Shown: one piece after another, positions 230 to 20,206 of the stretch
Layout of the letters: the number at the start of each line of letters is the position of its first letter
Position numbering within the stretch: position 1 is the stretch's first letter
The notes under the pieces: model-generated
The model's input: the letters and a program-made list of their open reading frames with translations, nothing else
What the model was told of the DNA's origin: nothing
Database searches by the model: none
Translations under genes and position numbers: made by a program
Assembly: GCA_900234795.1 (NCBI GenBank)
Contig: LT962688.1
Span: 2,460,001-2,492,000 of the forward strand
Direction: 5' to 3'
Origin: Methylorubrum extorquens
GTDB lineage: Bacteria > Pseudomonadota > Alphaproteobacteria > Rhizobiales > Beijerinckiaceae
DNA length: 32,000 nucleotides

Positions 230-1383
230 TCACGCCTTCGCGGCGGCCTCGGCCCGCGCCCAGCCGTCCTTGGTCTCGGCCACGAAATCCGCGAGCCGCC
301 CGGCCGCGATCGCCGCGCGCATGCCGGCCATCAGCGCCTGATAATAGGCGAGGTTGTTCCAGGTCAGCAGCATCATCCCCAGGATCTCGTCGGACCGGAC
401 GAGGTGGTGGAGATAGGCGCGTGAATAGTCCCGCGCCGCCGGGCAGTCCGAGGCCTCGTCCAGCGGCCGCGTGTCCTCGGCGTGGCGGGCGTTGCGCAGG
501 TTGATCCGGCCGTGCCTCGTATAGGCGAGGCCGTGGCGGCCGGCGCGGGTCGGCATCACGCAATCGAACATGTCGATGCCGCGCATCACCGACTGCATCA
601 GGTCGTCGGGGGGTGCCGACGCCCATGAGGTAGCGCGGCTTGCCGGCCGGCAGATGCGGCTCCACCGTCTCGATCATCGCCAGCATCACCGCCTGCGGCT
701 CGCCGACGGCAAGCCCGCCGATGGCGTAGCCCTTGAGCCCGAGATCGGTCAGCGCCCGCGCGCTCTCGACGCGTAGTTCGGGCACGTCGCCGCCCTGGAC
801 GATGCCGAACAGTGCCTTGCCGGGCTGCTCGCCGAAGGCGACGCGGCAGCGCTCGGCCCAGCGCAGGGGAGAGGTGCATCGCCTTCTCGATCTCCGGCCG
901 CTCGGCCGGCAGGCGCACGCATTCGTCGAGCTGCATCTGGATGTCGGAGCCGAGCAGGCCCTGGATCTCGATCGAGCGCTCCGGGCTCATCCGGTGGGCG
1001 GTGCCGTCGATATGCGAACGGAAGGTCACGCCCTCTTCGTCGATCTTTCGCAGGGCCGACAGCGACATCACCTGGAAGCCGCCGGAATCGGTAAGGATCG
1101 GCCCGTCCCAGCGCATGAAGCGGTGGAGGCCGCCGAGCCGCGCCATCCGCTCGGCGCCGGGGCGCAGCATCAAGTGGTAGGTGTTGCCGAGCACCACGTC
1201 GGCGCCCAGATCGCGCACCTGCTCCGGATACATCGCCTTCACGGTCGCGGCGGTGCCCACCGGCATGAAGGCCGGCGTGCGGATTTTTCCGCGCGGCATG
1301 GCGATGTGGCCGGTGCGGGCCTGGCCGTCGGTGGCGGAGACCGTGAAGGAGAAGTCGGTCGGGGGATCGAGCGGTTCGGTCAT
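230..1383 (-). pseudogene. tgt: tRNA-guanine transglycosylase (queuine tRNA-ribosyltransferase), interrupted by two +1 frameshifts as sequenced
   Basis: Three minus-strand pieces join into a complete Tgt. Piece 1: [37 protein letters not shown]. Piece 2: [49 protein letters not shown]. Piece 3: [26 protein letters not shown]... The joins require deleting one base from G-run 866-869 and one from G-run 608-613. 1154 nt minus 2 gives 384 codons. ATG at 1383, TGA at 230-232. Confidence 0.9.
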
Positions 1384-2222
1384 CGGTCCGGGGATGTGGG
1401 AGGCTCGGGGCGGGCGTGATAGCCCGGCGCGGCGTCGATCAGGAAACGCATCGCATCGAGGCCGGCCCGCATCGTCGCCTGCGACACCGCCTCCAAGTCA
1501 CCGAAACGGGCCGCGAGGGCGTCCTCGACCGCTTCGTGATAGGCCTTCGGGAGCAGGACCGTTAGGCGGCGTCCGGCCTCGGTCTTCGAGACGATCCGGC
1601 CGCTGGCGAGGGTCTCGATGATGCGGCCCACCCCCAGCACGCCCCATTCCAGGGCTCCCGCGTCGCAGGCGTCGTCGGGCGCCTTTCCGGCCAGCGCCGT
1701 CTCGTGATGCACGAGCCAGGGGCGCCAATGGGCTTCGAGGTGGGCGAGGCCGTAGGCGTGCAGCGTTGCATCATCATCGGCGATGTTCAGTGCGGCCGGC
1801 GTCGCCCCGAGGATCGGACGGCTGGACCGGGTAAGGCACCGCCAAGTGGCCGGATTCACCCCATGGCAGGGCTCGCCGCTGCGAAGCTGCCCGTCCACGC
1901 TGAAGGGCACGACGGCGCCGGGCTCCGGCGGGTGCCGCAGGGCCTCGATCGGTAGGTAGAAGCCGTCGAAATGCGGCCCGCCGGCCCGTGCCAGGGCGGC
2001 GTGGACCCTCGCCAGCGCGTCCGTCTCCGCCGCATTGAGGGGGCCGTCGAGGCAGGCGACGAAATCGATGTTGCTGCGGCCCGGCCGGAAATCACCGAGC
2101 GCCACCGAGCCGACGAGATAGAGGCCGCGCAGTTTCGGGCCGCCCTCGCTCGCGATCAGGCCGAGGAAGCGATCGACGGTGCGGGCGACATCGACCCGGA
2201 GCGGTGGGCGCCGGCTGCTCAT
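1380..2222 (-). CDS. Nucleotidyltransferase-fold protein, ANT(3'')/AadA-like architecture (NTase domain plus helical C-terminal domain)
   Basis: 280-aa ORF. NTase signature is [22 protein letters not shown] (G-S...D-x-D). The C-terminal [25 protein letters not shown] resembles the AadA helical domain (VVLTLSRIWYSAVTGKIAPKDVAA). The start overlaps the queA stop (ATGA at 2219-2222). The stop overlaps the tgt start (ATGA at 1380-1383). Confidence 0.75.
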
Positions 2223-3325
2223 GTGATGGACTCCGAAACCGGGGCACCCTCCGGAAACAGCAGGCTGGCATCGCCATAGGAGTAGAAGCGATAGCCGGAT
2301 TGGATTGCGTGGGCATAGGCCGCGCGCATGGTATCGAGGCCGGCAAAGGCCGAAACCAGCATGAACAGGGTCGAGCGCGGCAGGTGGAAGTTCGTCACCA
2401 GGGCATCGACCGCGCGAAAGCGGTAGCCCGGCGTGATGAAGATGTCGGTGGCCCCGGAGAACGGGCGGATCGTGCCGTCCGTGTCGGCCGCGCTCTCCAG
2501 CAGGCGCAGGGCCGTGGTGCCGACGGCGACGACCCGGTTGCCCCTCGCCCGCACGGCGTTGAGCCGCGCGGCGGTGGCGGCATCGAGGATGCCGATCTCG
2601 GCGTGCATCCGGTGGGCGTCGGTGTCGTCCGCCTTCACGGGCAGGAACGTGCCGGCCCCGACATGCAGGGTGACGTGGACCCGCTCGATCCCCGCCGCGT
2701 CGATGCCCGCGAGCAGCGCGTCCGAGAAATGCAGGCCGGCGGTGGGGGCGGCGACCGCGCCGGGCTCGCGGGCATAGACGGTCTGGTAGTCGGTGGTGTC
2801 CTGCGCGTCGGTGGGCCGCTTGCCCGCGATGTAGGGGGGCAGCGGCAGGGCGCCGAGCCCGGCAATGGCTTCGTCGAGCGCCGGCCCGGACAGGTCGAAG
2901 CGCAGCAGGATCTCGCCGCCCTCCCCCCGCTCCTCCACCGTGGCATCAAGCCCCGACAGGGCGCAGACTTCACTGGCGCCTTCGCTGCCGAAGCGGATGC
3001 GGTCGCCGGGGGCGAGGCGCTTGGCCGGGCGGGCGAAGGCGCGCCATCGATCGGGCGCCTCGCGCAGGTGCAGCATCGCCTCGCAGCGCTGCCCCGAGCC
3101 GCCGGCCCGATGGCGGATGCCGGAGAGCCGCGCGGGGATCACCCGCGTGTCGTTGAAGACGAGGGCGTCGCCGGGGCTCAGGAGGGCGGGCAGATCGCGC
3201 ACGCCGCGATCCGCCAAGGGGTCGCCGGGGCGCACCACGAGCAGGCGGCTCGCGTCGCGCGGGCTCGCCGGCCGCAGGGCGATCGCCGCCTCCGGCAACT
3301 CGAAATCGAACAGGTCCACACGCAT
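2219..3325 (-). CDS. queA: S-adenosylmethionine:tRNA ribosyltransferase-isomerase
   Basis: Typical QueA N-terminus [20 protein letters not shown] from ATG 3325. Family motifs present: [80 protein letters not shown]. The track ORF start at 3418 adds 31 non-homologous residues. Confidence 0.92.
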
Positions 3326-3417
3326 CCCAGGGCCATCAGCACGGATGGGCGCCCGACGCAAATGGCGGATTGATCGCAGAGGCCGGCCGGAGCAGCATGA
3401 CACCGGAGGCATCGCCA

Positions 3418-4878
3418 ATGGCAGACGTCCTGATCGTCGGCGCCGGGCCGGTCGGCCTGACGCTCGCCTGCGAGCTGGCGCGCTACGGCGTCGGCATCCG
3501 GCTGATCGACCGCGCGCCTCAGGCGACGCAGACCTCGAAGGCGCTCGTCGTCTGGTCGCGCACCCTCGAATTGATGGACCGGATGGGCTGCACCGAGGCC
3601 TTCCTCGCGGCGGGTCTGCGCGCCCGCGGCGCGACTCTGCGCGGTGGCGGCCGGGTGCTCGGCGGCCCGGACTTCTCCGACATCGCCAGCCCCTACGCCT
3701 TCGGGCTGATGATCCCGCAGAGCGACACCGAGCGGCTGCTGGCCGAGCACCTGCGCGGCTTCGGGGTCGCGGTCGAGCGCGCGGTCGAACTCACGCGCTT
3801 CTCACAGACGCCCGACGGGGTGGAGGCACGGCTCTCCCACGCCGATGGACGCGAGGAACGGGTGGCGACAGGCTTCCTGATCGGCTGCGACGGCGCCCAC
3901 AGCGCCGTGCGCCACGGGCTCGGCCTGCCCTTCCGCGGCACGGCGCAGGGCGACGAGTGGCTGCTCGCCGACATCCGCCTCGACGGCGCGGGTGTCCCGC
4001 CCGGCGACGCGATCGCGGTCTATTTCCACCGGGACGGTCCGTTCGTGATCTTCCCGATCCCCGGTGGTCGGGCGCGGGTGGTCGCCACGGTCGGACGCGC
4101 GGACGGGCGGCCGCGACCCGATCCGACGCTGGACGAGGTGCAGGCCCTGGTCGCCGCTCGGGCCGGGCCCGGCCTCCGCGTCTTCGATCCGGTCTGGCTC
4201 AGCCGCTTCCGCATCCATGAGCGGAAGGTCTTGGAGTACGCCCGGGGCCGCGTGTTCCTGGCGGGCGATGCCGCGCATATCCACAGCCCGGCCGGCGGCC
4301 AGGGCATGAACACCGGCATGCAGGACGCGGTGAACCTGGCCTGGAAGCTCGCCCTGGTGCGGCGCGGCGCGGCCGCCCCATCGCTCCTGGACAGCTACAG
4401 TTCGGAGCGCAACGCCGTCGGCGAGATGGTCTTGCGCAATGCCGGATGGCTCACCGCCATGGCGACGCTCACCCACCCCCTCGCCCAGGCCGTCCGCAAC
4501 CGCGCCCTGCGTCTGTTCCTCGGCTTTCACACCGTGCGGCGCCGGATGGCGGCGACGATGAGCGAGATCGCAATTGGCTATCCCGCCTCTCCGCTCTCGG
4601 TCGGGCCCGGCGCCGGCCGGCGCTGGCGGCCGGAGGATGCGGACGGCCCGCCGCCGGGCGCCGGCGCCGACCCACGCTTCGTCCTCTACGCGGCCGATGC
4701 CGAGCGCGGGACGGCGCTCGCCGCCCGCTTCCCCGGTCTGGTTCAGCCCGCAGCGCGAGCGAACCCCGAGCCGGGGCGCCTGCATCTGGTGCGCCCCGAC
4801 GGGTATGTCGGCCTCGCGGCCGGCGCGGCCGACTGGGACGCTGCGGCGCACTACCTGAAAGAACGTGGACCGGTCTGA
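3418..4878 (+). CDS. FAD-dependent aromatic-ring monooxygenase (PheA/TfdB/UbiH-type)
   Basis: [24 protein letters not shown] is a GxGxxG Rossmann start. DG..S.VR and [30 protein letters not shown] are the FAD/NAD motifs. GGAGG at 3405-3409 lies 8 nt before ATG 3418. Confidence 0.85.
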
Positions 4879-5193: not shown

Positions 5194-5225
5194 GCCGTGC
5201 CGCCGGCCACAGGAATCTTCGCGCC

Positions 5226-5490: not shown

Positions 5491-5563
5491 AACCTTTGCC
5501 GTGGCCTTCCGGGGCCACGGATCGTAAGGGCGGGGCCGTCCCCTCCCCGCCCCCTTGAGCCGC

Positions 5564-8659: not shown

Positions 8660-11600
8660 ATGTCCGCGTCCCGTCCGGTGCCACACAGCGATCGTGGAGC
8701 CGCTGCACCCGTCCAGAACGCGCCGCGGGAGGACGGGTTGGAAAGCCGCCTCGACGCTCTGTGCCGCTCCGTCGCCGAGGTCTTCGCCGTCCCCATGGCG
8801 GCGATCGCGCTCATCGACGCGGATCGCATCCGTTTCCGCGCCCGCTACGGGCTCGCGGAGGCCGTCATCGACCGCGACGACGCCCTCTGCCATCACACGA
8901 TCCACCAGCCGCGCGGTCACGCCCTCGTGGTGCCGGACCTGATCCGTGACGAGCGTTTCGTTCATTCTCCCCTCGTCGTCGGCGCGCCGCATGCCCGCTT
9001 CTACGCGGGTCTGGCGATCCGCTCGGGAGCGGGCCGGGTCGTCGGCACGCTGTGCCTGATGGATCGGGTGCCGCGGGACGATGTCTCGTCCGACCGAGTG
9101 CGCGTCCTTCAAGAATTGGCGCTCGTCGCCGAGGCGCATCTTGAGCTCGACGAAGCCCGCCGCGCGAGCGAGGCCGCGGAACGCCGACGGGCGGAGGCGC
9201 ATCTCTTGGAATGGGAGGCGCGCCAGAGGGCGCTCGAGGCGGCCCACGCCATGGCTGAACAGATCGCCGCCTTCGGCCATTGGCGGATCGATGCGGCCAC
9301 CTGCACTATCGCGTGGTCGGACGGGATCGCCGGCATCTTCGGGCGCAACGCCGAACGCGCGACGCTGCCGCTCGAAACCCATATCGGCTTCTATCATCCG
9401 CATGACCGCGAACGCGTCTGGGCCGCCATGGACGAGGCGCTCGCGGGCCGCAGCCGGACTCTGGGGGGTGGCTACGAGCACCGCTCTCGCATCCTTCGTC
9501 CCGACGGCGAGATCCGGGTGGTGGCTGTTCACGGGATCGGCGAACACGATGAGGCGGGCCGCCTCGTCTCGATCTTCGGCGTCTGCCTCGATGTCACCGG
9601 CATGGCCCGCTCCGAGCAGCGCCTGCGCGAGACCGGCGAGGCGATGCGGGCCGCTCTCGAGGCGATGGATCAGGGCCTCGTCATGATCGGCCCCGACGAC
9701 CGGGTTCAAGTCCACAACCAGCGCGTCCGCGATCTCCTCGAACTGCCGGAGGACGTCCTGCACGAGGGTGTGTCCTACAGGGCGGTGCGGCGCTTTCTCG
9801 GCCGGCGCGGCGAGTTCGTGCATGCGCCGCCCGAAGCCCAGGAATGGCTGGAGCACGGTGACTTCCCGCCCGGCGTCCAACGCTACGAGGGGATGCGGCC
9901 CAACGGCACGATCCTGGAGGTGCGGCACGCTCCGATGGCTTCCGGCGGCCACATCTGCACCTTCACCGACCTGACGGCGTCTCGGCAGAGCGAGGCGGCC
10001 CTGCGCTCGGCCGAGGCCGATTACCAGTCGTTGTTTCAGAATGCGGTGATCGGCGTCTATCGGGCCCGGCTCGACGGCGGCATCGTCCAGGCCAACCGAG
10101 CGCTCGCACGGCTGCACGGCTACGGCGATGCGGGCCTGTCCCTGCCGGATGGCGGCTTCAGCCACGACTGGTACATCGAGCCGGGCCGGCACGAGGCCTT
10201 CCTGGCCTGCCTGAAGCGGGAGGGCCACGTCGAGGACTTCGTATCCGAGGTGCGCCGCCACGCGGGCGGGGAACGCATCTGGGTCTCCGAGACCGCCTGG
10301 GTGGTGCGCGACGCGGCGGGCCGGCCGATCTGGTTCGAGGGCACTGTCGCGGATGCGACGGAGCGCAAGCGCGCCCAGGCGCTGATCGAGCACATGGCCC
10401 GCCACGACGCGCTGACCGGGCTGCCCAACCGCCGGCTGTTCCAGGAGACCCTGGCCCGGGAGATCGACGGAGCCCGGCGCGACGGCGGCTCGGTGGTGGT
10501 GCTGTGCTGCGACCTCGACCGCTTCAAAGCGGTCAACGACACCTTCGGCCATCCCGCGGGCGACGCCCTGCTCCGCGTCGTCGCGGGCCGCCTCCGCGCG
10601 ACCCTGCGCGAGGGCGACGTGGTGGCCCGGCTCGGCGGGGACGAGTTCGCGATCATCTTGCCAAGCCGGGGGAAGCAGCGCCGCATCGCCGCCTTCGCCC
10701 GCCGGCTGATCCAGGCCGCCGGGCGGCCGGTCGATCTCGGCGGCCGCGCCACCACCGTCGGCGTCAGCATTGGCGTGGCGGTTTGGCCCAAACACGGCGA
10801 CAGCGCCGACACCCTGTTCAAGAACGCCGACATCGCACTCTACCGGGCCAAGGATTCCGGGCGGAACACCTTCCGTTTTTACGAGAGCGGGATGGCTCTC
10901 GCGGTCGTGACCCGCAACCTTCTGGAAATCGAGATGCGCGAGTCGATCCGCTCCGGCGGGTTCGCGCTGCATTACCAACCGATCTTCGCCCTCGCGGACG
11001 GTGCGCCGCAGGGCTTCGAGGCTCTGTTGCGCTGGAATCATCCGATGCGAGGGCCGATCTCGCCGGGGGCCTTCATCCCGCTGGCGGAGGAGAGCGGCCT
11101 CATCACCCAACTCGGCGCCTGGGCGCTGCACGAGGCCTGCCGCGAGGCGGCCTCCTGGCCGGGCGATCTGCGGGTCGCCGTCAATGTCTCGGCGGTGCAG
11201 TTCCGCAAGACCGGGCTGGAGCAGAGCGTCGTGCGCGCGCTCGCGGCGTCGGGCCTACCGGCCGGGCGGCTCGAACTGGAGATCACCGAAAGCGTGCTGA
11301 TGCAGGATTCGGACGCCGTGATCGGTTCTCTGCACCGCCTGCGCGCCATGGGCGTGCGGATCGCGCTCGACGATTTTGGCACGGGCTACTCGTCCCTGAG
11401 CTACCTCTGCCGGTTCCCCTTCGACAAGATCAAGATCGATCGCGCCTTCATCCGCGACATCGACGAGCCCGTGGCGGCGGCGGTGGTGCGCGCGGTGGTG
11501 GGTTTGGGCGAGCGCCTCGGCATGGCCATCACCGCCGAGGGCGTGGAGACGGAGGAGCAGTTGGTGCAGGTGCGGCGCAAGGGCTGCACCGAGGTGCAGG

Positions 11601-11671
11601 GCTTCCTGCTCGGCCGGCCGCTGCCCGCCGCGGAAGCCATGACCCTCGTCGCGGGGCGGGTGGCGGCCTGA
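8660..11671 (+). CDS. Multidomain c-di-GMP signalling protein: GAF, several PAS domains, GGDEF and EAL
   Basis: 1003-aa ORF with GGGGGAG 8 nt upstream of the ATG. N-terminal GAF-like region: LDALCRSVAEVF..IALID..RF.ARYGL. PAS/PAC-like repeats follow: W..D..IFG, HP.DRE.V. GGDEF domain has RLGGDEFAI with an RxxD I-site (REGD) five residues upstream. EAL domain has EALLRWNHP, DDFGTGYSSLSYL, KIDRAFI, EGVET and QGFLLGRP. Confidence 0.93.
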   Translation: MSASRPVPHSDRGAAAPVQNAPREDGLESRLDALCRSVAEVFAVPMAAIALIDADRIRFRARYGLAEAVIDRDDALCHHTIHQPRGHALVVPDLIRDERFVHSPLVVGAPHARFYAGLAIRSGAGRVVGTLCLMDRVPRDDVSSDRVRVLQELALVAEAHLELDEARRASEAAERRRAEAHLLEWEARQRALEAAHAMAEQIAAFGHWRIDAATCTIAWSDGIAGIFGRNAERATLPLETHIGFYHPHDRERVWAAMDEALAGRSRTLGGGYEHRSRILRPDGEIRVVAVHGIGEHDEAGRLVSIFGVCLDVTGMARSEQRLRETGEAMRAALEAMDQGLVMIGPDDRVQVHNQRVRDLLELPEDVLHEGVSYRAVRRFLGRRGEFVHAPPEAQEWLEHGDFPPGVQRYEGMRPNGTILEVRHAPMASGGHICTFTDLTASRQSEAALRSAEADYQSLFQNAVIGVYRARLDGGIVQANRALARLHGYGDAGLSLPDGGFSHDWYIEPGRHEAFLACLKREGHVEDFVSEVRRHAGGERIWVSETAWVVRDAAGRPIWFEGTVADATERKRAQALIEHMARHDALTGLPNRRLFQETLAREIDGARRDGGSVVVLCCDLDRFKAVNDTFGHPAGDALLRVVAGRLRATLREGDVVARLGGDEFAIILPSRGKQRRIAAFARRLIQAAGRPVDLGGRATTVGVSIGVAVWPKHGDSADTLFKNADIALYRAKDSGRNTFRFYESGMALAVVTRNLLEIEMRESIRSGGFALHYQPIFALADGAPQGFEALLRWNHPMRGPISPGAFIPLAEESGLITQLGAWALHEACREAASWPGDLRVAVNVSAVQFRKTGLEQSVVRALAASGLPAGRLELEITESVLMQDSDAVIGSLHRLRAMGVRIALDDFGTGYSSLSYLCRFPFDKIKIDRAFIRDIDEPVAAAVVRAVVGLGERLGMAITAEGVETEEQLVQVRRKGCTEVQGFLLGRPLPAAEAMTLVAGRVAA

Positions 11672-11816
11672 GCCGGTGCGCGAGGACGGCCGGATGGCGG
11701 CACCTGTCGGGGGCGGATCGGCGGAAGTCCTGAGCGGAGGGCGAGCCGGCGCGTCGATGGGAAAGACTGAAATTTAAGAGTAATCGGCTATCGCTTCGGC
11801 CGTGACGTCGATGGCG

Positions 11817-11866
11817 AGAGCGGTGTCCGACCCCGTTGGGTCGGGCACCGCTCTATCCTCTTGTTT
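11817..11866 (+). terminator. Probable intrinsic terminator (17-bp stem, tetraloop, T-rich tail) downstream of the GGDEF-EAL gene
   Basis: agagcggtgtccgaccc-cgtt-gggtcgggcaccgctct with one G-T pair, followed by atcctcttgttt. It lies 145 nt after the stop at 11671 and before the ATG at 11927. Confidence 0.45.
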
Positions 11867-11926
11867 GCGGCGCTTTCTTTCGATGAACCGGAACCCGCTT
11901 CGTCGGAAAGCGCTCGAGGGGCGGTG

Positions 11927-12985
11927 ATGCAGGGACAGATGCAGCAGGCGGATCCGGACCTCGACCGCGCTCTGGCTCCCGCGCACCGCGCCTGGGAGGC
12001 GCTGCGGCAGTATGCGCTGCCGCCCTCCCCGCGGAACTACGAATTGCTGCACACCTTCTTCGCCGGCGCCAATCCGCCGCTGAGCGAACGCCTCGCGGCC
12101 TGTCTGGCACCCGGTGGAACGCTGACCGAGGAGCAGGCGAGCGCGCTCTACGACGCCTGCATCGCCGAGACCGGGACGGAGGCCTCCGTGCTCGATGGGG
12201 CGGGCCGGCTGGCGGAGGCGGCCGGTACCCTGGCGGAGCGCGTCGCGGGCAGCCGGAGGGCGCTCGCCGGCTATGGTGACGCCCTGACCCATTGGTCCGG
12301 CCGCCTGAATGCACGTCCGACCGCCGACGAGCTGATGACGGCGCTCGTCGCCCTGATCGGCGAGACCGAGCAGGCGCAGACCCGCAACCACCTGCTCGAG
12401 GAGCAGCTCTCGGCCTCCGCCGCCCACATCGCCAAACTGCACAAGGATCTCGTCGAGACGCAGCGCGCGGCGGCGACCGATGCCCTGACGGGGCTTGCCA
12501 ACCGCAAGACCTTCGACGGGTTCCTGCGCGACTCGATCGCCCGCACCCGGAGCGATTCCGGCAGCACCTTCTCCCTGCTCATGCTCGACATCGACCACTT
12601 CAAGGGTCTCAACGACCGGCACGGCCACCGCTTCGGCGATCAGGTGCTGCGCCTCGTCGGACGGCTGCTCAGCGCGAAGACGACGGATCGCGACCTCGCC
12701 GCGCGCTACGGCGGCGAGGAATTCGCGATCGTGCTCGGCGAGGCCGGCATCGGTGCCGGCGTCGCACTCGCCCAGGAGATCTGCGGCCGGCTGCGGGGTC
12801 AGCGGCTGGTCAAGCGTGGCACCGGCGATGTCGTGGCACAGGTCACGATCTCGGCCGGCGTCGCGCAGTACCGGCCGGGCGAAGCCGCCCGCGACGTGAT
12901 CGAGCGGGCCGACCGCGCGCTCTACGAGGCCAAGCGGACCGGCCGCGACCGTGTCTGCCCGACGCCGCGGGCCGCGGTCGCGTGA
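11927..12985 (+). CDS. Diguanylate cyclase (helical/coiled-coil N-terminal region plus GGDEF domain)
   Basis: ATG 11927 has GAGGGG 6 nt upstream. The GGDEF domain shows DALTGLANRK.F, LLMLDIDHFKGLNDRHGH..GD and RYGGEEFAIVL. The I-site position reads TDRD, not RxxD. The track start at 11861 would overlap the hairpin at 11817-11854. Confidence 0.88.
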   Translation: MQGQMQQADPDLDRALAPAHRAWEALRQYALPPSPRNYELLHTFFAGANPPLSERLAACLAPGGTLTEEQASALYDACIAETGTEASVLDGAGRLAEAAGTLAERVAGSRRALAGYGDALTHWSGRLNARPTADELMTALVALIGETEQAQTRNHLLEEQLSASAAHIAKLHKDLVETQRAAATDALTGLANRKTFDGFLRDSIARTRSDSGSTFSLLMLDIDHFKGLNDRHGHRFGDQVLRLVGRLLSAKTTDRDLAARYGGEEFAIVLGEAGIGAGVALAQEICGRLRGQRLVKRGTGDVVAQVTISAGVAQYRPGEAARDVIERADRALYEAKRTGRDRVCPTPRAAVA

Positions 12986-12998
12986 GGTCGCGCGGCGA

Positions 12999-14351
12999 TC
13001 AGCGGAAATCGGTCGGCGCGAGGCCGTAGCGGGCGATCTTGTCGTAGAGGGTCTTGCGCGGCACGCCGAGGGACTCGGCTGCCAGCCGCACGTCGCCGCC
13101 GGCCATGATCAGCTCCTCGCGGATCAGCCCGCGCTCGAACCGCTCGACCTGGTCGGACAGGCTGAGAGCCGCCGTCGGCGTCGCCTCCGGGGCGGCTTGG
13201 CCGGCGAGGCCCAGGGCGCAGCGTTCGGCGAAATGATCGAGTTCGCGCACGTTGCCCGGCCAGGAATGGCGCAGCAGGTGGTCGCGCATCGCCGCCGTCA
13301 CCGGGGGCGCCTCGCGGCCGAACCGGGCAGCGGCGCGGGCCAGGAAGTGCTGGAACAGCATCAGGATGTCCTCACGCCGCTCGCGCAGGGGCGGGATCAC
13401 GACCGTGACGACGTTGAGCCGGTGGTAGAGGTCGTCGCGGAACGTGCCGGCGGCGGCCTCCTGGCCGAGATCGACCTTCGTCGCCGAGACGACCCGCATA
13501 TCGATCGGCCGCCGCTCGTTGGTGCCCAGCGGCTCGACCACCCGCTCCTGCAGCACGCGCAGCAGCTTCACCTGAAGCGCCAGCGGCATGCTCTCGATCT
13601 CGTCGAGGAACAGTGTGCCCCCTTGCGCGTGCTCGATGCGTCCGACCCGGCGCTTGAGCGCCCCGGTGAAAGCGCCGGCCTCGTGGCCGAAGAGTTCGCT
13701 CTCCACCACGCTGTCGGGCAGCGCGCCGCAATTCATCGCGACGAAGTTCTTCGAGGCGCGCCGGCTCCAGCGGTGGAGGGCGTTGGCCACCACCTCCTTG
13801 CCGGAGCCCGTCTCGCCGAGCACGAGCACATCGACATCGGCGCCGGCCACATCGCGCACGAGGCGGCGCAGGCGTACGATTTCCGGCGAGATCCCGAGGA
13901 AGGCGGGATCCTCCTCGATTGCCGCGTCGAGCCGGGCGATGAGCCGGCGGTTATCCAGAACGAGGCGGCGGCGGTCGAGGGCGCGACGCACCGAACCCAT
14001 CAGCGCTTCGGCCGGGTAGGGTTTGGCCAGGAAATCATAGGCGCCCGAGCGCATCGCCGCGACCGCCATCGAGATATCGCCGTGCCCGGTGATGAGGATC
14101 ACGGGCAGGTCCGGGTCCTCGGCCTGGATCCGCTCCAACAGGGCGCGGCCGTCGAGACCCGGCAGGCGCACGTCGGTGACGACCACCCCCGGTGGCTCGG
14201 CCCGGATCGCTGCGAGGGCGGGTTCCCCCGCCTCGAAGGTCTCGACCTGGAAGCCGTCGAGTTCGAGGCTCTGGCGGTTGGCGCGCCGCACGTCCTCCTC
14301 GTCGTCGATGAAGACGATCCGCTCGGACGCGCCGTCCGGCTCGCTGCTCAT
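12999..14351 (-). CDS. dctD: Sigma54-dependent response regulator of C4-dicarboxylate transport
   Basis: ATG 14351 gives MSSEPDGASERIVFIDDEEDVRR, a receiver domain (VVTDVRLPGLDG). The AAA+ sigma54-interaction domain has GETGSGKE, ESELFGHEAGAFTGA and GTLFLDEI. A C-terminal HTH (LGVPRKTLYDKIARYGL) is present. The start overlaps the dctB stop (ATGA). The 794-aa track ORF is an artefactual upstream extension. Confidence 0.9.
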   Translation of the reverse strand: MSSEPDGASERIVFIDDEEDVRRANRQSLELDGFQVETFEAGEPALAAIRAEPPGVVVTDVRLPGLDGRALLERIQAEDPDLPVILITGHGDISMAVAAMRSGAYDFLAKPYPAEALMGSVRRALDRRRLVLDNRRLIARLDAAIEEDPAFLGISPEIVRLRRLVRDVAGADVDVLVLGETGSGKEVVANALHRWSRRASKNFVAMNCGALPDSVVESELFGHEAGAFTGALKRRVGRIEHAQGGTLFLDEIESMPLALQVKLLRVLQERVVEPLGTNERRPIDMRVVSATKVDLGQEAAAGTFRDDLYHRLNVVTVVIPPLRERREDILMLFQHFLARAAARFGREAPPVTAAMRDHLLRHSWPGNVRELDHFAERCALGLAGQAAPEATPTAALSLSDQVERFERGLIREELIMAGGDVRLAAESLGVPRKTLYDKIARYGLAPTDFR

Positions 14352-16225
14352 ATGGCCTCCAGGCTCCCGACCGGCTTTGCGTTCCGCTTGTCCTGCGCCG
14401 CATCCGCCGGTGCGGGGGCGCGGGTCAACTCCATCCGGAAGGTCGTGCCGTCGGCGCCCGAGTGCAGCCCGAGCGTTCCGCCGCATTCCTCGACGATACC
14501 GCGGCAGATCGCCAGACCGAGCCCGAGGCCTTCGGATTTCGTGGTGAAGAACGGGTCGAACACCTGCGCCCGCACGGCTTCCGGGATGCCCGGCCCGTTG
14601 TCGGCGACCTCGACCGCGATCCGCTCCTCGCTCGCCTCGACCCGCAGGGCGATCCGCGCCTCCGGGCGGCCGGTCACCGCGTCGAGGGCGTTCTGCAGCA
14701 GGTTGACGACGACCTGTTCCAGGCGTGGCCCGTCGCCGAGCACGGCGAGATCGGGCGAGGGAAGCGGCGCATCGAGGGCGATGCCGGTCTGCGCGGCGCG
14801 CCAGGAGACGACTTCGAGGCTTCCGCGGACGATATCGGCGAGGCCGACCGGCTCGCGCCGGCCCGAGGCGCGGCGGGCGAAGCCCTTGAGCTGGCGGGTC
14901 AGGGTGCCGATGCGCTCGGTCAGCCGACCGATCGCCGAGACGTTCTCCGCCGCATCCTCCACGCGCCCGCGGCGCACGAGAAACGCGGTGTTGTCGGCAT
15001 AGGAGCGGATCGCGGCGAGCGGCTGGTTGATCTCGTGAGCCATGCTGGCCGCGAATTGACCCAATGCCGCGAGCCGCCCGGCCTGGGCCAGTTCGCGGCC
15101 GAGGCGCTCGCGTTCGGCCTCGGCGCGGCGGCGCTCCTCGATCTCGCCGAGAAGCTGCCGGTTGGCCTCGCTGAGCGCGTGCGTGCGCTCGGCCACCCGC
15201 GCTTCCAGGTCTTCGCGCCGGGCGGCGGCCTCTGCGAGCCGGGTCCGCATCCGCCGCCGGCGGCCCATCAGCATGGCGAGCCCGGCCCAGGCGAGACTCG
15301 TCGTCAGCAGGGCGATCACCCGGCCCTGCGCCCGCTCGCGCTGAACCGCGGCGGCGATCGGGGTCAGGGTGTGAAGGCGCCATTCAGTGCCGGGGATCGG
15401 GGCGTCGAGCATCAGTGCCGGCCAAGCCGGCTTGGCGCTGCCGCCGACCCGGACGAGATCGTCCGCGCCGAGATCGGCGTAAAGCGGCAGGGGCAAGAGC
15501 GCCGCTTCGCCGAATTCGAGCGCCTCGCGGATGCGCTTGCGCTCCGCCTCGTCGATGGCGCGCAGCGCCTTGAAGCGCCAGGCCGGGTCGCTCGCCACCA
15601 GCACGATACCGCGGGCATCGGTGACGAACACGCTCTCGCGACTCGTGCGCCATGCCGCCTCGATCGCGTCGAACTCGATCTTGACGACGACGACGCCGGC
15701 CGCGCGAGGGAGCCGGCGAGCGAGATAGTAGCCCGGCCGGCCGCTGACGGTGCCGAGGGCGAATTGCGAGCCGGAGCCGGTCGCCATCGATTCCCTGAAA
15801 TAGGGGCGAAAGCCGTAGTCGCGGCCGAGGAAGCTCTTTTCCGAGGTCGCGTTGCTCGCGGCGACCGTGACGCCGTCGGTGCCCATCACGTAGATCACCG
15901 CGGCCCCGGTCGCCTCGGCGATCTGAGCGAGGCGGCCATTCACACCCTCGACGAGTTCGGGGTCGGGCGCGGGTGCCACGATGCGGGCGATCTCGGGGTC
16001 CGCGGCGAGCGCGAGCGGCAGCGAACTCTGCGCCTGCATCTCGGCCCGAAGCGCCGCGACTTGGAGGCCGAGCGTCGAGGAAGCCGAACGCCGCAGATCG
16101 GTCAGCGCCCACCGTTCCGCCACCCGCCCGCCGAGCCAGCCCGACAGCAGCAGAGCCGCGAGCCCCGCCAGCACCACGAGCGCCCGCCGGTAATCTTTCG
16201 CGGAAAGCGGAGCGGCGACGATCAC
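14348..16225 (-). CDS. dctB: C4-dicarboxylate sensor histidine kinase
   Basis: 625-aa ORF with a GTG start at 16225 (start uncertain). It has an N-terminal TM segment, a periplasmic domain and a second TM segment. The H-box is FAASMAHEINQPLAAI. HATPase motifs are LLQNALDA, DNGPGI and GLGLGLAI. It is divergent from dctA and coupled to dctD, the Rhizobium-type dct locus arrangement. Confidence 0.88.
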   Translation of the reverse strand: MIVAAPLSAKDYRRALVVLAGLAALLLSGWLGGRVAERWALTDLRRSASSTLGLQVAALRAEMQAQSSLPLALAADPEIARIVAPAPDPELVEGVNGRLAQIAEATGAAVIYVMGTDGVTVAASNATSEKSFLGRDYGFRPYFRESMATGSGSQFALGTVSGRPGYYLARRLPRAAGVVVVKIEFDAIEAAWRTSRESVFVTDARGIVLVASDPAWRFKALRAIDEAERKRIREALEFGEAALLPLPLYADLGADDLVRVGGSAKPAWPALMLDAPIPGTEWRLHTLTPIAAAVQRERAQGRVIALLTTSLAWAGLAMLMGRRRRMRTRLAEAAARREDLEARVAERTHALSEANRQLLGEIEERRRAEAERERLGRELAQAGRLAALGQFAASMAHEINQPLAAIRSYADNTAFLVRRGRVEDAAENVSAIGRLTERIGTLTRQLKGFARRASGRREPVGLADIVRGSLEVVSWRAAQTGIALDAPLPSPDLAVLGDGPRLEQVVVNLLQNALDAVTGRPEARIALRVEASEERIAVEVADNGPGIPEAVRAQVFDPFFTTKSEGLGLGLAICRGIVEECGGTLGLHSGADGTTFRMELTRAPAPADAAQDKRNAKPVGSLEAI

Positions 16226-18073: not shown

Positions 18074-18469
18074 ATGCTCAAGGGACGCTGCCATTGCGGG
18101 GCCATCACCTACGAGATGCCGAGCGAGGTGGCCCATAACACGCTCTGCCACTGCTCGGATTGCCGGCGCCATTCCGGCGCGCCGATGGTCGGCTGGGCGA
18201 CGGTGCCGGCCGAGCGCGTAACGATCTCCGGCGAACTCTCGGTCTACGCCTCCTCCGAGCACGGACGGCGGCATTTCTGCGGGCGTTGCGGCACCGGCCT
18301 GTTCTACGTCAACGAGCAGACTCTGCCGGGCATGATCGACGTGCAGACCGGCACCCTCGACACGCCTGAAGCCCTGCCGCCGCAGGCGCATATCCAGGTG
18401 GCCGAGCGCGTCGCCTGGATGGAGGAGGCGCACCGGTTGCCAAGCTTCGAGCGGTTTCCGGGCGGTTGA
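18074..18469 (+). CDS. GFA family protein (glutathione-dependent formaldehyde-activating enzyme / CENP-V fold, Zn-binding)
   Basis: GAGGAGG lies 4-5 nt before ATG 18074. The sequence MLKGRCHCGAITYE..CHCSDCRRHSGAP..FCGRCGTGLF shows the characteristic Cys pattern of the GFA family. Confidence 0.85.
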   Translation: MLKGRCHCGAITYEMPSEVAHNTLCHCSDCRRHSGAPMVGWATVPAERVTISGELSVYASSEHGRRHFCGRCGTGLFYVNEQTLPGMIDVQTGTLDTPEALPPQAHIQVAERVAWMEEAHRLPSFERFPGG

Positions 18470-18697
18470 TACCAAGCTGTCTGGACCCCGACCGATGCTT
18501 GCTTTCCGGGCGTTCGGCGGAAGCTCGCCGCGCCGCCGCATGGGCAATCGGCGATGAACCCTCATCGTCGTCGATTGTATGAGGTCTCCTCCGGGACATG
18601 CATGGGGCTTTGTATTCTACCCTATGTTGCATTTACTTGATGCGCCTGCGAAGCAGAACGGGCGGATAGCCGGTCCGTCGCCTGCCAAGAGCCCGTC

Positions 18698-19582
18698 ATG
18701 CCGAGTGCGCCGTGGCCGCTGATCGAGATCTACGTCGCGGCGGTGTCCGACGATAACCGGAGCAGCCTGCGCAGCGCATTGCTGGAATTGGTGGCCGAGA
18801 CTCCGAGCCTTGATTTCTCGACCGATTCGACGACCGGCCGATTCATCTTCAAAGCCGGGACCGAGCGGTGTCTCGGCGTCGCACTCGAGCGTCTCCGAGC
18901 CGGTCCGATCGCCTTCGAGACTGGGCAGCTGCAGGTCGCTTATCGCGAGAGACTGACCCGTCGACGTGAGATCGACTTCCTGCACAAGCGTGTGATCAAA
19001 GGCGACAAAGGCCAGTTCGCGCGCGTGAAGCTCCGGTTCGAACCGAGCGAGCCCGGTGTCGGCAACGTGTTCAACGCGAAGATCCCCGAAGCGACTCTGC
19101 CGAGCGAGTACGTCGATGGTATCGAGAGGGGCGTCGCTTCGGTGCTGAGCGCCGGTGTCGTGGCCAGCCGTCCCGTTATCGACATCACGGCTGAGCTGAT
19201 CGACGGCGCTTATCACGAAATCGATTCTTCGCCCCTCGCCTTCGAAATCGCAGCCCGCGCAGCCTTCCGTGAGGCGCTTCACGGCAGCTCCGTGCTCGCC
19301 GAGCCGATCATGGCAGTCGAAATCGCGGTACCGGAGCGATCCGCCGCCCGGGTGATCAGCGACTTGCAAGGCCGCCGCGGTCTGATCCGGGACAGGAGCG
19401 TGCGCAGCGACGCGACCCTCATCACCGCGACGGTGCCTCTCGCTGAGATGCTTGGGTTTGGTTCGCGCCTGCAATCCGTAGCCGGCGACGAAGCCTGCTT
19501 TTCAATGGCATTCAGCCATTATGCACCCGTCCCATCGTTGGATCTCGATCCGCCGCCGATGGTTGCTGCACTACGCGCGTAA
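18698..19582 (+). CDS. Elongation factor G-like protein comprising only domains III, IV and V (no GTPase domain, no domain II)
   Basis: 294 aa, colinear by eye with the EF-G C-terminal half. Matches: PLIEIYVAAV..LRSALLELVAETPSL, QVAYRER, GDKGQFARVKLRFEP, DGAYHEIDSSPLAFEIAA, AEPIMAVEI.VPE....VISDLQGRRGLI and VPLAEMLGFGSRLQS. There is an in-frame stop at 18638. Only 228 nt separate it from the preceding gene. The RBS is weak (AAGAG). Confidence 0.8.
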   Translation: MPSAPWPLIEIYVAAVSDDNRSSLRSALLELVAETPSLDFSTDSTTGRFIFKAGTERCLGVALERLRAGPIAFETGQLQVAYRERLTRRREIDFLHKRVIKGDKGQFARVKLRFEPSEPGVGNVFNAKIPEATLPSEYVDGIERGVASVLSAGVVASRPVIDITAELIDGAYHEIDSSPLAFEIAARAAFREALHGSSVLAEPIMAVEIAVPERSAARVISDLQGRRGLIRDRSVRSDATLITATVPLAEMLGFGSRLQSVAGDEACFSMAFSHYAPVPSLDLDPPPMVAALRA

Positions 19583-19585
19583 GGA

Positions 19586-19618
19586 TCTTGCGCCGAGCGT
19601 GAGAGCGCTCGCGCAAGA
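19586..19618. other. GC-rich hairpin filling the 39-bp gap between convergent genes (possible bidirectional terminator without a clear U-tract)
   Basis: tcttgcgc-c-gagcg-tgagag-cgctc-gcgcaaga: an outer 8-bp plus an inner 5-bp stem. It sits between TAA 19580-19582 (plus-strand gene) and the TAA complement at 19622-19624 (minus-strand gene). Confidence 0.4.
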
Positions 19619-19621
19619 GAA

Positions 19622-20206
19622 TTAGAACGCCGACAGCCGTCGACAAACCCGCTCGATGAACCGTGCGCGCATCGGTTGCGTGGCCCCATCCATGCCGGTG
19701 AGCGCGATCCAGTCGAGCCGGCAGCGCGGGGCACAAAGCGGGCAGATGCCGAAGCGGAACATCCGCCAATCGGGCCAGCCGACGAGCCAGAGCAGCCAGC
19801 GCGGCGAGCCGTAGGTCGTCACCACGGCAATCCGTCGGATGTTGGTGAGGCGTGGTTGCAGCACCTTCGCCCCGCCCAGCGCGAAGGCCACGCCCGGCAG
19901 CCAGACCCGGTCGAACCAGCCTTTCAGCATGGCCGGCGGCCCGAACCACCATGTCGGGTAGACGAGGACCAAAGCCTCGGCCCGGCGCAGCGCGGCGATG
20001 TGGCCGGCAAGGTCCGGCCGCCCGGCACCCTCGTCGTAATAGGCGCCCCGTTCCGCCGCGCTCAGCCGCGGATCGAAACCCTCTTCGTAGAGATCGAGCC
20101 GTTCGATCACATGGCCCGCCGCTTCGAGCGCGGTGGCGGCGGTGTCGCATAGGGCCGCGTTGAAGCTGTCGCGGCGGGGATGGCAATGGACCAGCAGGAC
20201 GCGCAT
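19622..20206 (-). CDS. Flavodoxin-like fold NAD(P)H dehydrogenase (quinone) family protein
   Basis: MRVLLVHCHPRRDSFNAAL..LDLY.EGFDP, followed by VLVYPTWWFGPPAMLKGWFDRV, typical of the Flavodoxin_2 / NQO-type family. It starts 6 nt after the stop of the upstream transglycosylase gene. Confidence 0.8.
   Translation of the reverse strand: MRVLLVHCHPRRDSFNAALCDTAATALEAAGHVIERLDLYEEGFDPRLSAAERGAYYDEGAGRPDLAGHIAALRRAEALVLVYPTWWFGPPAMLKGWFDRVWLPGVAFALGGAKVLQPRLTNIRRIAVVTTYGSPRWLLWLVGWPDWRMFRFGICPLCAPRCRLDWIALTGMDGATQPMRARFIERVCRRLSAF

Follow-up and report, generated by a model that had tools for sequence, protein, structure and literature searches.

The Methylorubrum extorquens window analysed here (32,000 nt of contig LT962688.1) contains an intact gene that encodes domains III, IV and V of elongation factor G (EF-G) only, without the GTPase (G) domain and domain II, and this domain content is well supported. 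The gene, a 294-aa GTPase-less EF-G paralogue at 18698..19582 on the forward strand, sits alone in an inserted islet. By its architecture it appears to belong to a large and so far undescribed family of domain III-IV-V EF-G paralogues with a C-terminal peptide of their own, and that such a family exists is likewise well supported. To our knowledge, every protein so far assigned to the EF-G/EF2 lineage is a GTPase, among them EF-G2, the Tet(M)-type protection proteins, LepA, BipA, RF3 and Snu114. Because surveys of translational GTPases search with the G domain, relatives that lack it escape them. A large family under selection that has only the tRNA-mimicking body and a conserved peptide at its end would represent a novel kind of translation-associated protein. 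The original prediction had described a stand-alone EF-G body in a compositionally atypical, possibly acquired islet and had listed the C-terminal half of a split EF-G among its possible roles; the G-less body and the atypical islet stand, the split EF-G is disfavoured, and both the tail-defined family and the divergent status of this copy had been missed.

Domain content and predicted fold

The ORF runs from an ATG at 18698 to a TAA at 19580-19582, and its colinearity with the C-terminal half of EF-G, first noticed by eye, was borne out by profile searches. In Pfam, the domain IV-like part (aa 79-197; 18932..19288) matched EFG_IV over aa 79-195 (2.3e-30) and the domain V-like part (aa 198-280; 19289..19537) matched EFG_C over aa 200-280 (1.3e-21). 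The domain III-like part (aa 1-78; 18698..18931), which is the least conserved, gave a borderline EFG_III match over aa 5-68 with 26.9 bits, just below the 27-bit cutoff. The GTP_EFTU and domain II models (GTP_EFTU_D2, EF-G_D2) had no match in the 294-aa protein. The C-terminal tail (aa 281-294; 19538..19579), the SLDLDPPPMVAALRA region, replaces the canonical EF-G C-terminal helix. NCBIfam EF-G models aligned only across model positions ~400 to 680 and scored below their cutoffs (TIGR00484, 207.0 against 659.4; NF009381, 213.8 against 583). The closest PDB sequence match was Rickettsia EF-G residues 412-699 (E 2.7e-61), and identity to Methylobacterium EF-G (P0061) was only ~48%.

The AlphaFold model of the protein had a pLDDT of 83.6. 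In Foldseek it superposed on EF-G domains III-V with a query-normalised TM-score (TMq) of 0.84-0.86 and an rmsd of ~2.6 Å over ~278 residues. Domains III-V are homologous and colinear with those of canonical EF-G (fusA; TIGR00484, EFG I, Alphaproteobacteria), and the predicted fold agrees at a TMq of ~0.85. The protein differs from EF-G in lacking G, G' and II, and with them GTP binding or hydrolysis, in carrying a Pro-rich tail where EF-G has a C-terminal helix, and in being encoded outside the str operon by a gene that evolves several-fold faster than its neighbours.

There is no room upstream for the missing half, as had been argued from the letters: the stop noted in frame at 18638 is confirmed as a TGA, each of the three frames of 18470-18697 is interrupted by stops, and a tblastn search of the whole window with E. 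coli EF-G residues 1-410 returned nothing (best E-value 0.25).

The inserted islet and its evolution in Methylorubrum

The whole islet (18470..19621) comprises 1152 bp between the stop codons of two convergent genes, a GFA gene on its left flank (18074..18469, forward strand) and a flavodoxin-like NAD(P)H oxidoreductase gene on its right flank (19622..20206, reverse strand). The wider neighbourhood, with dctA-like SDF, GFA, flavodoxin-like oxidoreductase and SLT_2 genes, is not the str operon (rpsL-rpsG-fusA-tuf). In M. rhodesianum-type genomes (L191-L195) the islet is absent and the GFA and flavodoxin-like genes are only 6 nt apart; the gap is also 6 nt, without islet, in M. organophilum (L196). 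A junction alignment placed the indel boundaries exactly between both stop codons. Because the flanking genes lie 6 nt apart in relatives without it, the islet is an insertion, and the horizontal acquisition that had been proposed from composition agrees with this. Gene presence is patchy, with the gene inserted in some Methylorubrum strains, and the Methylorubrum copy came in as a single-gene cassette between the stops of two convergent housekeeping genes. The islet ends carry neither direct nor inverted terminal repeats, and no transposase was seen. In two metagenome loci a tRNA gene lies close to the family member.

The composition of the islet is atypical. The GC3 of the ORF is 0.749, the lowest among the 29 ORFs of the window (median 0.884, sd 0.059), and the GC content of the islet is 0.63 against 0.695 for the whole window. 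Codons ending in A or T make up 24.8% of the ORF and 7.1% of gatB, and the earlier hand counts of ~25% and ~7% were therefore accurate; the codons AGA (one), AGG (two), CTA (one) and GTA (two) are present as reported.

The left spacer and 5' leader (18470..18697, forward strand) is 228 nt long, has stops in all frames and a GC content of 0.61. In M. podarium its proximal ~100 nt are conserved, down to an identical AAGAGCCCGTC directly 5' of the ATG, and its distal ~113 nt are missing. The Shine-Dalgarno sequence before the ATG at 18698 is weak (AAGAG), and a sigma-70 consensus promoter was sought in the left spacer and not found. A regulatory RNA in the leader was rejected, given a weak Rfam BjrC80 match at 18463-18582 (24 bits against a gathering score of 80) and an RNA fold no better than that of shuffled sequences. 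A strong stem-loop between the convergent genes (19586..19618), terminator-like on either strand and without a U-tract, had a folding energy of -24.5 kcal/mol (z -4.4; none of 200 shuffles equally good); M. podarium lacks 18 nt of it.

The exact 294-aa protein was found on 23 public contigs with the same neighbours. Orthologues of 293-294 aa lie at the corresponding site in M. podarium, in M. extorquens DM4 (FP103042.2, at ~3.762-3.764 Mb) and in another M. extorquens strain (CP019322.1), and one M. zatmanii genome also carries the gene. No relative has a full-length fusA paralogue at the locus, where there is either the 293-294-aa ORF or nothing, and a remnant of such a paralogue, the refutation that had been foreseen, is thereby set aside. 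In a scan of GTDB representative genomes with the window protein, 79 of the 80 loci returned were full-length fusA or unresolved and one (L006, from a Rhodobiaceae MAG) was a family member. The same scan returned no Methylorubrum locus, despite the presence of the gene in DM4, CP019322 and an M. zatmanii genome; the representative genome may lack it.

The ORF is intact in every genome sampled, with 293-294 codons and one 1-codon indel over a dS of ~0.6-0.9. Amino-acid identity with M. podarium is 68%, against 85-96% for the flanking genes. The dN/dS against M. podarium is 0.39 (bootstrap 95% interval 0.28-0.55; 0 of 300 replicates at or above 1), with 0.61 for domain III, 0.36 for domain IV and 0.32 for domain V, and the neighbouring housekeeping genes gave YN00 values of 0.02-0.10. 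Inside the M. extorquens clade the ratio is 0.36-0.81, against 0.03-0.32 for the flanking genes, and with values up to 0.81 the window copy may be losing function. Since its insertion, the Methylorubrum copy has evolved fast under weak purifying selection.

A family of GTPase-less EF-G paralogues

The architecture is shared by more than 100 protein clusters, with at least 64 representatives that are no more than 50% identical to each other. Members are ~300 aa long, start at the domain II/III boundary and end in the tail DDPxFxPAxGMRA-COOH, which is common to the stand-alone proteins and absent from canonical EF-G, with its terminal ...AxEVQAKYA helix. In two protein searches, all 107 tail-bearing proteins lacked G and domain II. 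Exact matches to the back-translated tail, a pattern expected by calculation once per roughly 7e14 positions, were found in 90 metagenome stretches, which yielded 44 distinct complete ORFs of 295-306 aa. Among the 149 top representatives newly returned (150 were listed, the remaining one being P0005), 89 were 270-330 aa long and 64 of these 89 had the tail; many short proteins outranked full-length EF-Gs (~680-700 aa) among the top representatives listed. In the tail logo, few positions of the protein are conserved as strongly as the tail A (0.98) and R (0.97), and the family-wide dN/dS is 0.23-0.32. Tail pLDDT was below 50 in both AlphaFold models, and the tail is predicted to be disordered; it had no match in solved structures.

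Of the canonical-invariant columns, the family keeps 70% in domain IV, the best conserved, 48% in domain III and 52% in domain V. Across the diverse family H573 (0.89), S577 (0.95) and the RR of domain V (0.94 and 0.83) are kept, domain IV loop I is not conserved, and residues 454-472 of domain III (Thermus numbering, Tth), invariant in canonical EF-G, are variable. In EF-G these domain III positions point towards the G domain and the fusidic acid pocket. Unrelated mini-domains are present at the N-terminus of some members.

Soil and rhizosphere metagenomes are rich in family members, and the few taxon-assignable members are Alphaproteobacteria. No gene neighbour is conserved across the family; conservation is confined to sub-lineages and gives no functional clue, and the ABC permease/MtnK and purine-catabolism contexts were rejected as a functional link because they are lineage-specific synteny. 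At one locus (L004), two BrnT/BrnA toxin-antitoxin pairs adjoin the family member. No viral contig had the tail pattern, and among the plasmid-search matches listed the top ones were canonical fusA and none was a tail-bearing copy; several of these matches sit on records of 2.6-11.9 Mb, which is chromosome-sized.

The view that no characterised family has this architecture held up in every resource consulted. NCBIfam has no model specific to the G-less proteins, even for diverse members, Pfam offers none, PADLOC models did not match the window protein or three family members, and the searched literature, also when queried by protein accession, does not describe a natural G-less EF-G. Databases annotate these proteins as 'elongation factor G', a systematic mis-annotation that can now be flagged, and the family can be searched for by its length (~300 aa), its beginning at the domain III boundary and its tail ...F-x-P-A-x-G-M-R-A. 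Decayed family copies occur elsewhere (L095, L111, L136, L157). Occurrence of the tail on non-EF-G proteins was rejected, as the candidates (L095/L153, L100, L136) are decayed EF-G remnants. One tail-bearing sequence on a 1.8-kb metagenome contig (L125) reads upstream into domain II sequence; we did not accept it as a full-length tail-bearing parent, and chimeric assembly or recombination with fusA may account for it. The reverse mosaic is seen in P0082, P0084 and P0180.

Within this family, the window copy appears to be a fast-evolving, degenerate and weakly constrained branch. It keeps domain IV loop II (DGAYHEIDSS, with the His-x-x-Asp-Ser-Ser of EF-G) and the RRG motif of domain V, and its N-terminus MPSAPWPLIEI parallels the xxWPLIEV and PPWLVEV of other members. 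Domain IV loop I is altered (KRVIKGDKGQF against KKQTGGTGQF), and three basic domain V residues conserved elsewhere are lost (K/R607->A, R660->Q and R666->E in Tth EF-G numbering). Of the 102 columns that canonical EF-G and the main family both conserve, 26 are lost in the window lineage, and the window copy retains 39% of the canonical-invariant columns in domain III and 73-74% in domain IV. Its tail, ...SLDLDPPPMVAALRA, keeps the acidic-Pro-Pro start and the terminal L-R-A but not the F (0.83) and the near-invariant A (0.98); it reads as a degenerate form of the family motif DDPxFxPAxGMRA, and intermediate tails exist in other members (PPPAAAMRA in P0107, PPVAAAIRA in P0022, PPPAAAAMRA in P0011). 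In an NJ tree the window group formed a long branch outside the tight canonical cluster, like other stand-alone proteins, a placement in which long-branch attraction is possible. A search with the family profile, which itself contained window-group sequences, ranked the M. podarium orthologue third. Given the degenerated loop I, basic domain V residues and tail, the activity of this copy is probably weakened or altered.

Proposed mode of action and alternative explanations

We tentatively favour, with less than firm conviction, the reading that the ORF is an inserted family member whose product most likely binds the ribosome without nucleotide turnover and uses its tail as a docking peptide. 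Without a GTPase, the protein would not catalyse translocation. In EF-G, the kept parts, namely the domain IV core with loop II and the domain V RRG, extend into the ribosomal A site and the factor-binding region, and their retention is what suggests such binding. On the ribosome, the protein would occupy or compete for the EF-G site and could modulate translation or serve as a parking or protection factor. The tail, conserved and predicted to be disordered, may be a docking peptide or a stability signal for some partner. Without the G and G' domains, L7/L12 recruitment and the sarcin-ricin loop contact would be missing, and binding to the ribosome could therefore be weak. What EF-G does at the decoding centre depends critically on domain IV loop I, and the lack of conservation of this loop in the family and its disruption in the window copy count against a ribosomal role. 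The columns lost in the window lineage, the clade dN/dS of up to 0.81, the weak Shine-Dalgarno sequence, the missing promoter consensus and the lack of a telling neighbour speak against the favoured reading as well. Borowski, Rodnina and Wintermeyer reportedly found (PNAS, 1996) that an engineered G-domain-less EF-G still binds ribosomes and promotes partial translocation.

Among the alternatives, it is rather unlikely, in our judgement, that in Methylorubrum the gene is a passenger, decaying or evolving almost neutrally, an acquired family copy with little activity left that has simply not yet been disrupted. The high dN/dS inside the M. extorquens clade, the low identity with M. podarium, the lowest GC3 of the window, and the loss of the GG motif in loop I, of three conserved basic residues in domain V and of the F and A of the tail are what such a passenger would look like; decayed copies are known elsewhere in the family, and in a neutral-substitution simulation an ORF of 885 nt stayed open in 12% of the runs. 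The same ORF is nevertheless intact and constant in length at 293-294 codons in all sampled genomes over a dS of ~0.6-0.9, its dN/dS of 0.39 is significantly below 1, and domains IV and V are more constrained than domain III, which is unexpected for a pseudogene. An artefactual origin, with the ORF either a chance reading frame or a 3' portion of fusA that was frameshifted or mis-called, can hardly be credited and we regard this reading as refuted, since the locus lies outside the str operon, the upstream sequence is stopped in all frames and without EF-G similarity, identity to Methylobacterium EF-G is only ~48%, and the same ORF occurs in the complete genomes DM4 (FP103042.2) and CP019322.1. 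Precedents for such artefacts do exist: a frameshifted fusA in an str operon has P0113 as its third piece, and among 291-296-aa 'proteins' there are many gene-call fragments beginning at the internal MEFPEP.

A decoy or sponge, in which an inactive display of domains III-V titrates argyrin-type antibiotics, EF-G-binding proteins or toxins and so shields EF-G, is improbable. Resistance genes are often patchy, single-gene insertions, and the gene is patchy among close relatives and was inserted singly; it evolves fast, and the family is abundant in soil and rhizosphere metagenomes. A sponge would, however, need high expression, and codon usage is poor. The fusidic acid site requires the G domain, which is absent here. 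Domain III, which makes up half of the argyrin site, is conserved less than any other part of the protein, the strongly conserved tail is left unexplained, PADLOC gave no match, and resistance or toxin genes were unseen in most of the neighbourhoods examined, the BrnT/BrnA pairs at L004 excepted. [quoted passage not shown] It is very improbable that the protein is the C-terminal half of a split EF-G, assembling with a separate G plus domain II polypeptide into a working translocase, even though the ORF starts exactly at the domain II/III boundary. No G-domain gene adjoins any examined family member or is found in the window, and the family has its own N-terminal residues and a new C-terminal tail, with the unrelated mini-domains on some members instead. 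The domain III residues Tth 454-472, which in EF-G point towards the G domain, are variable. The family dN/dS of 0.23-0.32 is several-fold above the 0.02-0.10 of neighbouring housekeeping genes, the comparison being with neighbours and not with fusA, and constraint at least as strong as theirs is to be expected of an essential translocase.

Returning to ribosome binding without nucleotide turnover, the broader proposal that the widespread soil-bacterial family is a new class of nucleotide-independent ribosome factor, with the Methylorubrum gene as an acquired and diverging member, is in our view possible but doubtful. If true, the factor would sit in the A site and the factor-binding site, or compete for them, and would thereby control translation, for example in dormancy, under stress or in protection from EF-G-directed attack, and the tail would recruit it to, or free it from, a specific partner. 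The family would then be a natural experiment in what domains III-V do without GTP hydrolysis. M. extorquens DM4 carries the gene and is genetically tractable, and the question is therefore directly testable, a main-family member being the better biochemical subject.

The proposed nucleotide-independent occupancy of the site would be the only likeness, by analogy, to HPF/RaiA, Balon and EF-G on hibernating ribosomes (PDB 9PYC); HPF/RaiA, Balon and the like have no sequence or fold relationship to the window protein. EF-G2 (EFG II) and Tet(M), Tet(O) and Otr(A) are likewise EF-G-derived and outside the translocase role, but they keep the GTPase and domain II, both of which the window protein lacks, and it scored far below their cutoffs (tet_protect, 77.2 against 775; EF-G2, 159 against 890). 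Tet proteins act with domain IV and a C-terminal extension at the decoding centre. Laboratory III-V or G-deleted EF-G fragments fold alone and bind ribosomes or FusB. These fragments, G-deleted EF-G and the S. aureus EF-G III-V 'C3' (PDB 2MZW), have the same domain content but are engineered truncations, whereas the window protein is naturally encoded and belongs to a selected family with its own termini; 2MZW (301 aa) aligns with window residues 4-280 (E 8e-46).

A stand-alone EF-G body in an inserted islet

The EF-G body gene (18698..19582, +) starts with ATG and encodes 294 aa. In its product, Pfam identified EFG_IV (2.3e-30, aa 79-195), EFG_C (1.3e-21, aa 200-280) and, at 26.9 bits vs the cutoff of 27, EFG_III (aa 5-68), and gave no match to GTP_EFTU or domain II. 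The protein aligned to the NCBIfam EF-G models only at model positions ~400 to 680, with scores far under every whole-protein cutoff (207 vs 659 for TIGR00484). Its top PDB sequence match was Rickettsia prowazekii EF-G residues 412-699 (E 2.7e-61), and in the same search it aligned end to end with 2MZW, an S. aureus domain III-V construct. An AlphaFold2 model built from 32 sequences (pLDDT 83.6, pTM 0.72) was superposed on EF-G domains III-V with a query-normalised TM-score (TMq) of 0.84-0.86 and an rmsd of ~2.6 A over ~278 residues. Upstream of the ATG, the 228 nt back to the GFA stop are interrupted by stops in all three frames, including an in-frame TGA at 18638, and E. coli EF-G residues 1-410 found no match in the 32-kb window by tblastn (best E 0.25). 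The original prediction of an EF-G body lacking the GTPase and domain II, with no room upstream for the missing half, was thus borne out in both architecture and fold, and the reading of this gene as an artefact, to which we gave practically no weight, is refuted.

The atypical composition of the islet (18470..19621), previously counted by hand, was also correct: 24.8% of the codons of the EF-G body gene end in A/T vs 7.1% in gatB, AGA, AGG, CTA and GTA are each present, its GC3 of 0.749 is the lowest among 29 ORF calls (median 0.884, sd 0.059), and islet GC is 63% vs 69.5% for the window. Comparison with relatives shows that the islet is an insertion. In M. podarium the same site carries SDF, GFA, EF-G body (293 aa), flavodoxin-like, SLT_2, IalB and GSHPx genes in matching order; M. 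extorquens DM4 (FP103042.2) has a 294-aa gene there, M. extorquens CP019322.1 likewise carries the gene, and an identical copy of the flavodoxin-like protein lies on GCA_001423385.1 LMNP01000006.1 with neighbours unchanged. The gene is absent from M. rhodesianum-type genomes and from the outgroup M. organophilum, in both of which just 6 nt separate the GFA gene from the flavodoxin-like one. A nucleotide alignment of the site placed the indel boundary exactly between the two stop codons. The M. podarium insert follows a ...TGACGC junction that looks ancestral. The extorquens clade differs in the four final GFA codons and has ~113 extra nt at the left end. Terminal repeats of the islet were looked for and are absent, and a strong stem-loop (19586-19618, -24.5 kcal/mol, z -4.4) lies between the convergent genes. 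None of the relatives compared has a full-length fusA paralogue here, and the gene is not what is left of a local fusA.

The G-less family and its C-terminal tail

Orthologues of the window protein occur at 93-94% identity in M. extorquens, M. zatmanii and Methylobacterium sp. RAS18, at 68% in M. podarium and at 59% in one further relative, followed by many ~300-aa proteins on long contigs at ~47-49%. Some of these, such as P0022 and P0083, are genuine stand-alone genes in unrelated genomic contexts; others are artefacts, among them P0113, which is piece three of a fusA broken by frameshifting in a str operon. Aligned C-termini read ...HYAPxP-x-DD-PPFRPAIGMRA in stand-alone proteins, ...HYEQVP-xx-AAEVQAKYA in canonical EF-G and ...SLDLDPPPMVAALRA in the window protein.

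The back-translated tail pattern, expected by chance about once per 7e14 positions (our own arithmetic), matched 90 metagenome stretches, mainly from soil, peat and rhizosphere. These yielded 44 distinct complete ORFs of 295-306 aa starting at the domain III boundary, together with 358/365-aa forms and a few decayed copies. A profile search added ~100 further clusters among the matches listed. The tail was carried by 107 of 222 proteins, all of them either <=320 aa or 353-372 aa with a non-EF-G N-terminal extension, and none of the 107 has a G domain or domain II. An exhaustive HMM search over 1.84 billion representatives was evaluated for its best 150 matches (149 new sequences and the protein P0005); 89 of the 149 were 270-330 aa long, many of these outranking full-length (~680-700 aa) EF-Gs among the matches listed, and 64 of the 89, with mutual identity <=50%, bore the tail. 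As a logo the tail reads D-D-P-x-F(0.83)-[PR]-P(0.77)-A(0.98)-x-[GA]-[ML]-R(0.97)-A(0.75)-COOH, and its A and R belong to the best-conserved residues anywhere in the protein. Across the family dN/dS is 0.23-0.32.

Few of the sources have names (Methylorubrum/Methylobacterium, a Tardiphaga MAG and a Rhodobiaceae MAG), and in all sources the proteins are annotated 'elongation factor G'. NCBIfam has no model dedicated to these proteins, PADLOC gave no match, the tail pattern was absent from viral contigs, and the top plasmid matches among those listed were canonical fusA with no tail-bearing copy. The literature searched held no description of a natural G-less EF-G, in agreement with the earlier remark that no characterised family of this architecture was known. 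We are highly confident of the identity and family statements taken by themselves. The family is large, undescribed, mis-annotated and widespread, and the finding is chiefly of value as a way into this set of EF-G paralogues that lack the GTPase and share a signature peptide at the C-terminus. Scanned with six peptide patterns, the GTDB species representatives gave no Methylorubrum locus, despite the gene's presence in the complete genomes of DM4 and CP019322; three of the six patterns occur in the M. extorquens orthologue P0001 and none in the 68%-identical M. podarium orthologue. Either the representatives lack the gene, implying strain-level presence/absence, or the collection does not cover the stretch.

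Several variants accompany the main form. A 353-365-aa G-less subfamily (P0017, P0024, P0035 and related proteins; loci L199-L203 at 5001-6074) has a ~50-aa N-terminal mini-domain of three strands and a helix (MTYLPVESFIIQRLQEGGWRVIHRR..., AlphaFold pLDDT ~80) with no Pfam match, its genes surrounded by purine-catabolism and nucleoside-transport genes, and P0011 (372 aa) has an extension of another kind. At locus L125 (1-990, -) a family body with tail is preceded by domain II sequence where the contig ends, and P0180, P0082 and P0084 join a stand-alone-type N-terminus to a canonical ...AKYA C-terminus. These mosaics of family and canonical sequence arose by gene conversion or by recombination with the resident fusA, or else they are chimeras of metagenome assembly. 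Decayed copies (L095/L153, L111, L136, L157, L086, L102, L161) are either bodies with frameshifts or what is left of domain V and the tail, joined to the end of unrelated sequence; they indicate the gene turnover typical of accessory genes. As single, non-recurring cases, a stand-alone member adjoins a divergent ClpP/SppA-like serine protease gene 8 nt away (L002, 5028-5993, -; Pfam CLP_protease 7.5e-05) and another adjoins two BrnT/BrnA toxin-antitoxin pairs (L004, 490-3073).

Conservation, selection and possible role

Among columns invariant in canonical alphaproteobacterial EF-G, the main family keeps 48% in domain III, 70% in domain IV and 52% in domain V. Relaxed positions concentrate at the new N-terminus and at domain III Tth 454-472 (T. 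thermophilus numbering), a helix which in EF-G we take to be turned towards the G domain and the pocket for fusidic acid. A protein that really does without a G domain should show such relaxation, which speaks against re-association of a split factor with a G-plus-domain-II half; with no partner gene beside any family member examined or in the window, a split EF-G is very improbable. The family as a whole retains domain IV loop II (H573 0.89, S577 0.95) and, in domain V, the RR motif (0.94, 0.83); it does not retain the loop I GG motif, invariant in canonical EF-G. The tail takes the place of the EF-G C-terminal helix, which packs on domain IV. It is predicted to be disordered even in a model with 103 aligned sequences and has no match among PDB sequences; conserved yet disordered, it would most simply be a docking motif or stability signal.

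Pairwise comparison of the window with M. podarium showed that the gene is under purifying selection, which is clearly relaxed. Amino-acid identity is 68% vs 85-96% for flanking genes, dN 0.225 vs 0.02-0.09, and dN/dS 0.39 vs 0.13-0.34 (NG86) or 0.23 vs 0.02-0.10 (YN00). The bootstrap 95% interval of the 0.39 is 0.28-0.55, with no replicate reaching 1; the gene is maintained, though weakly. By domain, dN/dS is 0.61 (III), 0.36 (IV) and 0.32 (V); inside the M. extorquens clade it is 0.36-0.81 vs 0.03-0.32 for the flanks, on small counts. The two ORFs differ by one codon without frameshifts, only modest evidence of maintenance in itself since 12% of neutral-substitution simulations left the ORF stop-free.

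The window copy is a divergent branch of the family and may be a weakened member. Of 102 columns that canonical EF-G and the main family both conserve, it retains only 76; among its losses are E414, P415, D435 and G453 in domain III and, in domain V, the basic K/R607, R660 and R666. Loop I is KRVIKGDKGQF vs KKQTGGTGQF, differs again in M. podarium (KRV-PGGRGQF) and is deleted in the 59%-identical relative, and the window tail lacks the family F and near-invariant A.

Without a GTPase the protein presumably cannot be a translocase. An engineered G-less EF-G, described by Borowski et al. in 1996, was reportedly still able to bind ribosomes. With the tRNA-mimicking domain IV core retained, together with domain V elements that are ribosome-facing in EF-G, ribosome binding without nucleotide turnover appears most likely; the EF-G body would then occupy, or compete for, the EF-G site, and the tail might mediate recruitment, release or turnover. 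We favour this role overall only tentatively, at somewhat less than even chances. The relaxed selection and lost motifs of the Methylorubrum branch would also suit a decaying passenger there, which we consider unlikely, if a good deal less so than a decoy or sponge for EF-G-directed molecules. The low affinity that argyrin B shows for EF-G in its free form (PMC9171646) weakens the latter, which we regard as improbable.

Upstream signals and genomic surroundings

Main-family genes carry a conserved promoter-like box, ...TCGATTGTCGGCCAACCTTCGCTAGAATAGT... (CTCGAT-N17-TAGAAT), ~90-100 nt upstream, and 3' of it a conserved leader, TTTGGGATTGAGCG-ATG. Both were seen at eight metagenome loci (L092, L094, L118, L133, L145, L155, L167, L171) and accompany the gene across different neighbourhoods, which suggests that it moves with its own expression signals. 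The window copy has neither, nor was a sigma-70 consensus found upstream of it. The Bradyrhizobiaceae sRNA BjrC80 (Rfam) matched at 18463..18582 (+), in the distal part of the left spacer that is absent from M. podarium, with 24.1 bits vs a gathering score of 80 and a 41-position gap. The match is of interest because the G-less family is common in Bradyrhizobiaceae-like metagenome contigs; none of 16 related loci reached the gathering score, and it is probably due to chance.

Elsewhere in the window, tgt (queuine tRNA-ribosyltransferase; 230..1383, -) appears split, the match to the Pfam TGT profile being confined to positions 2-154 for ORF 598..1383 and to positions 244-353 for ORF 230..598; one or more frameshifts, a pseudogene or an error of assembly could account for this. 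Between tgt and queA (2219..3418, -) lies an AadA_C-like nucleotidyltransferase ORF (1380..2222, -). The wider surroundings of the islet (8660..12985, 12999..16225) are signalling-rich: 8660..11671 encodes a GAF-PAS-GGDEF-EAL protein and 11861..12985 another protein with GGDEF, and a sensor kinase paired with a sigma-54 activator, both DctB/DctD-like, is encoded upstream of the dctA-like SDF transporter. Flagellar genes, for FliM, FliL, FlgF/G, FlgA and FlgI, follow downstream.
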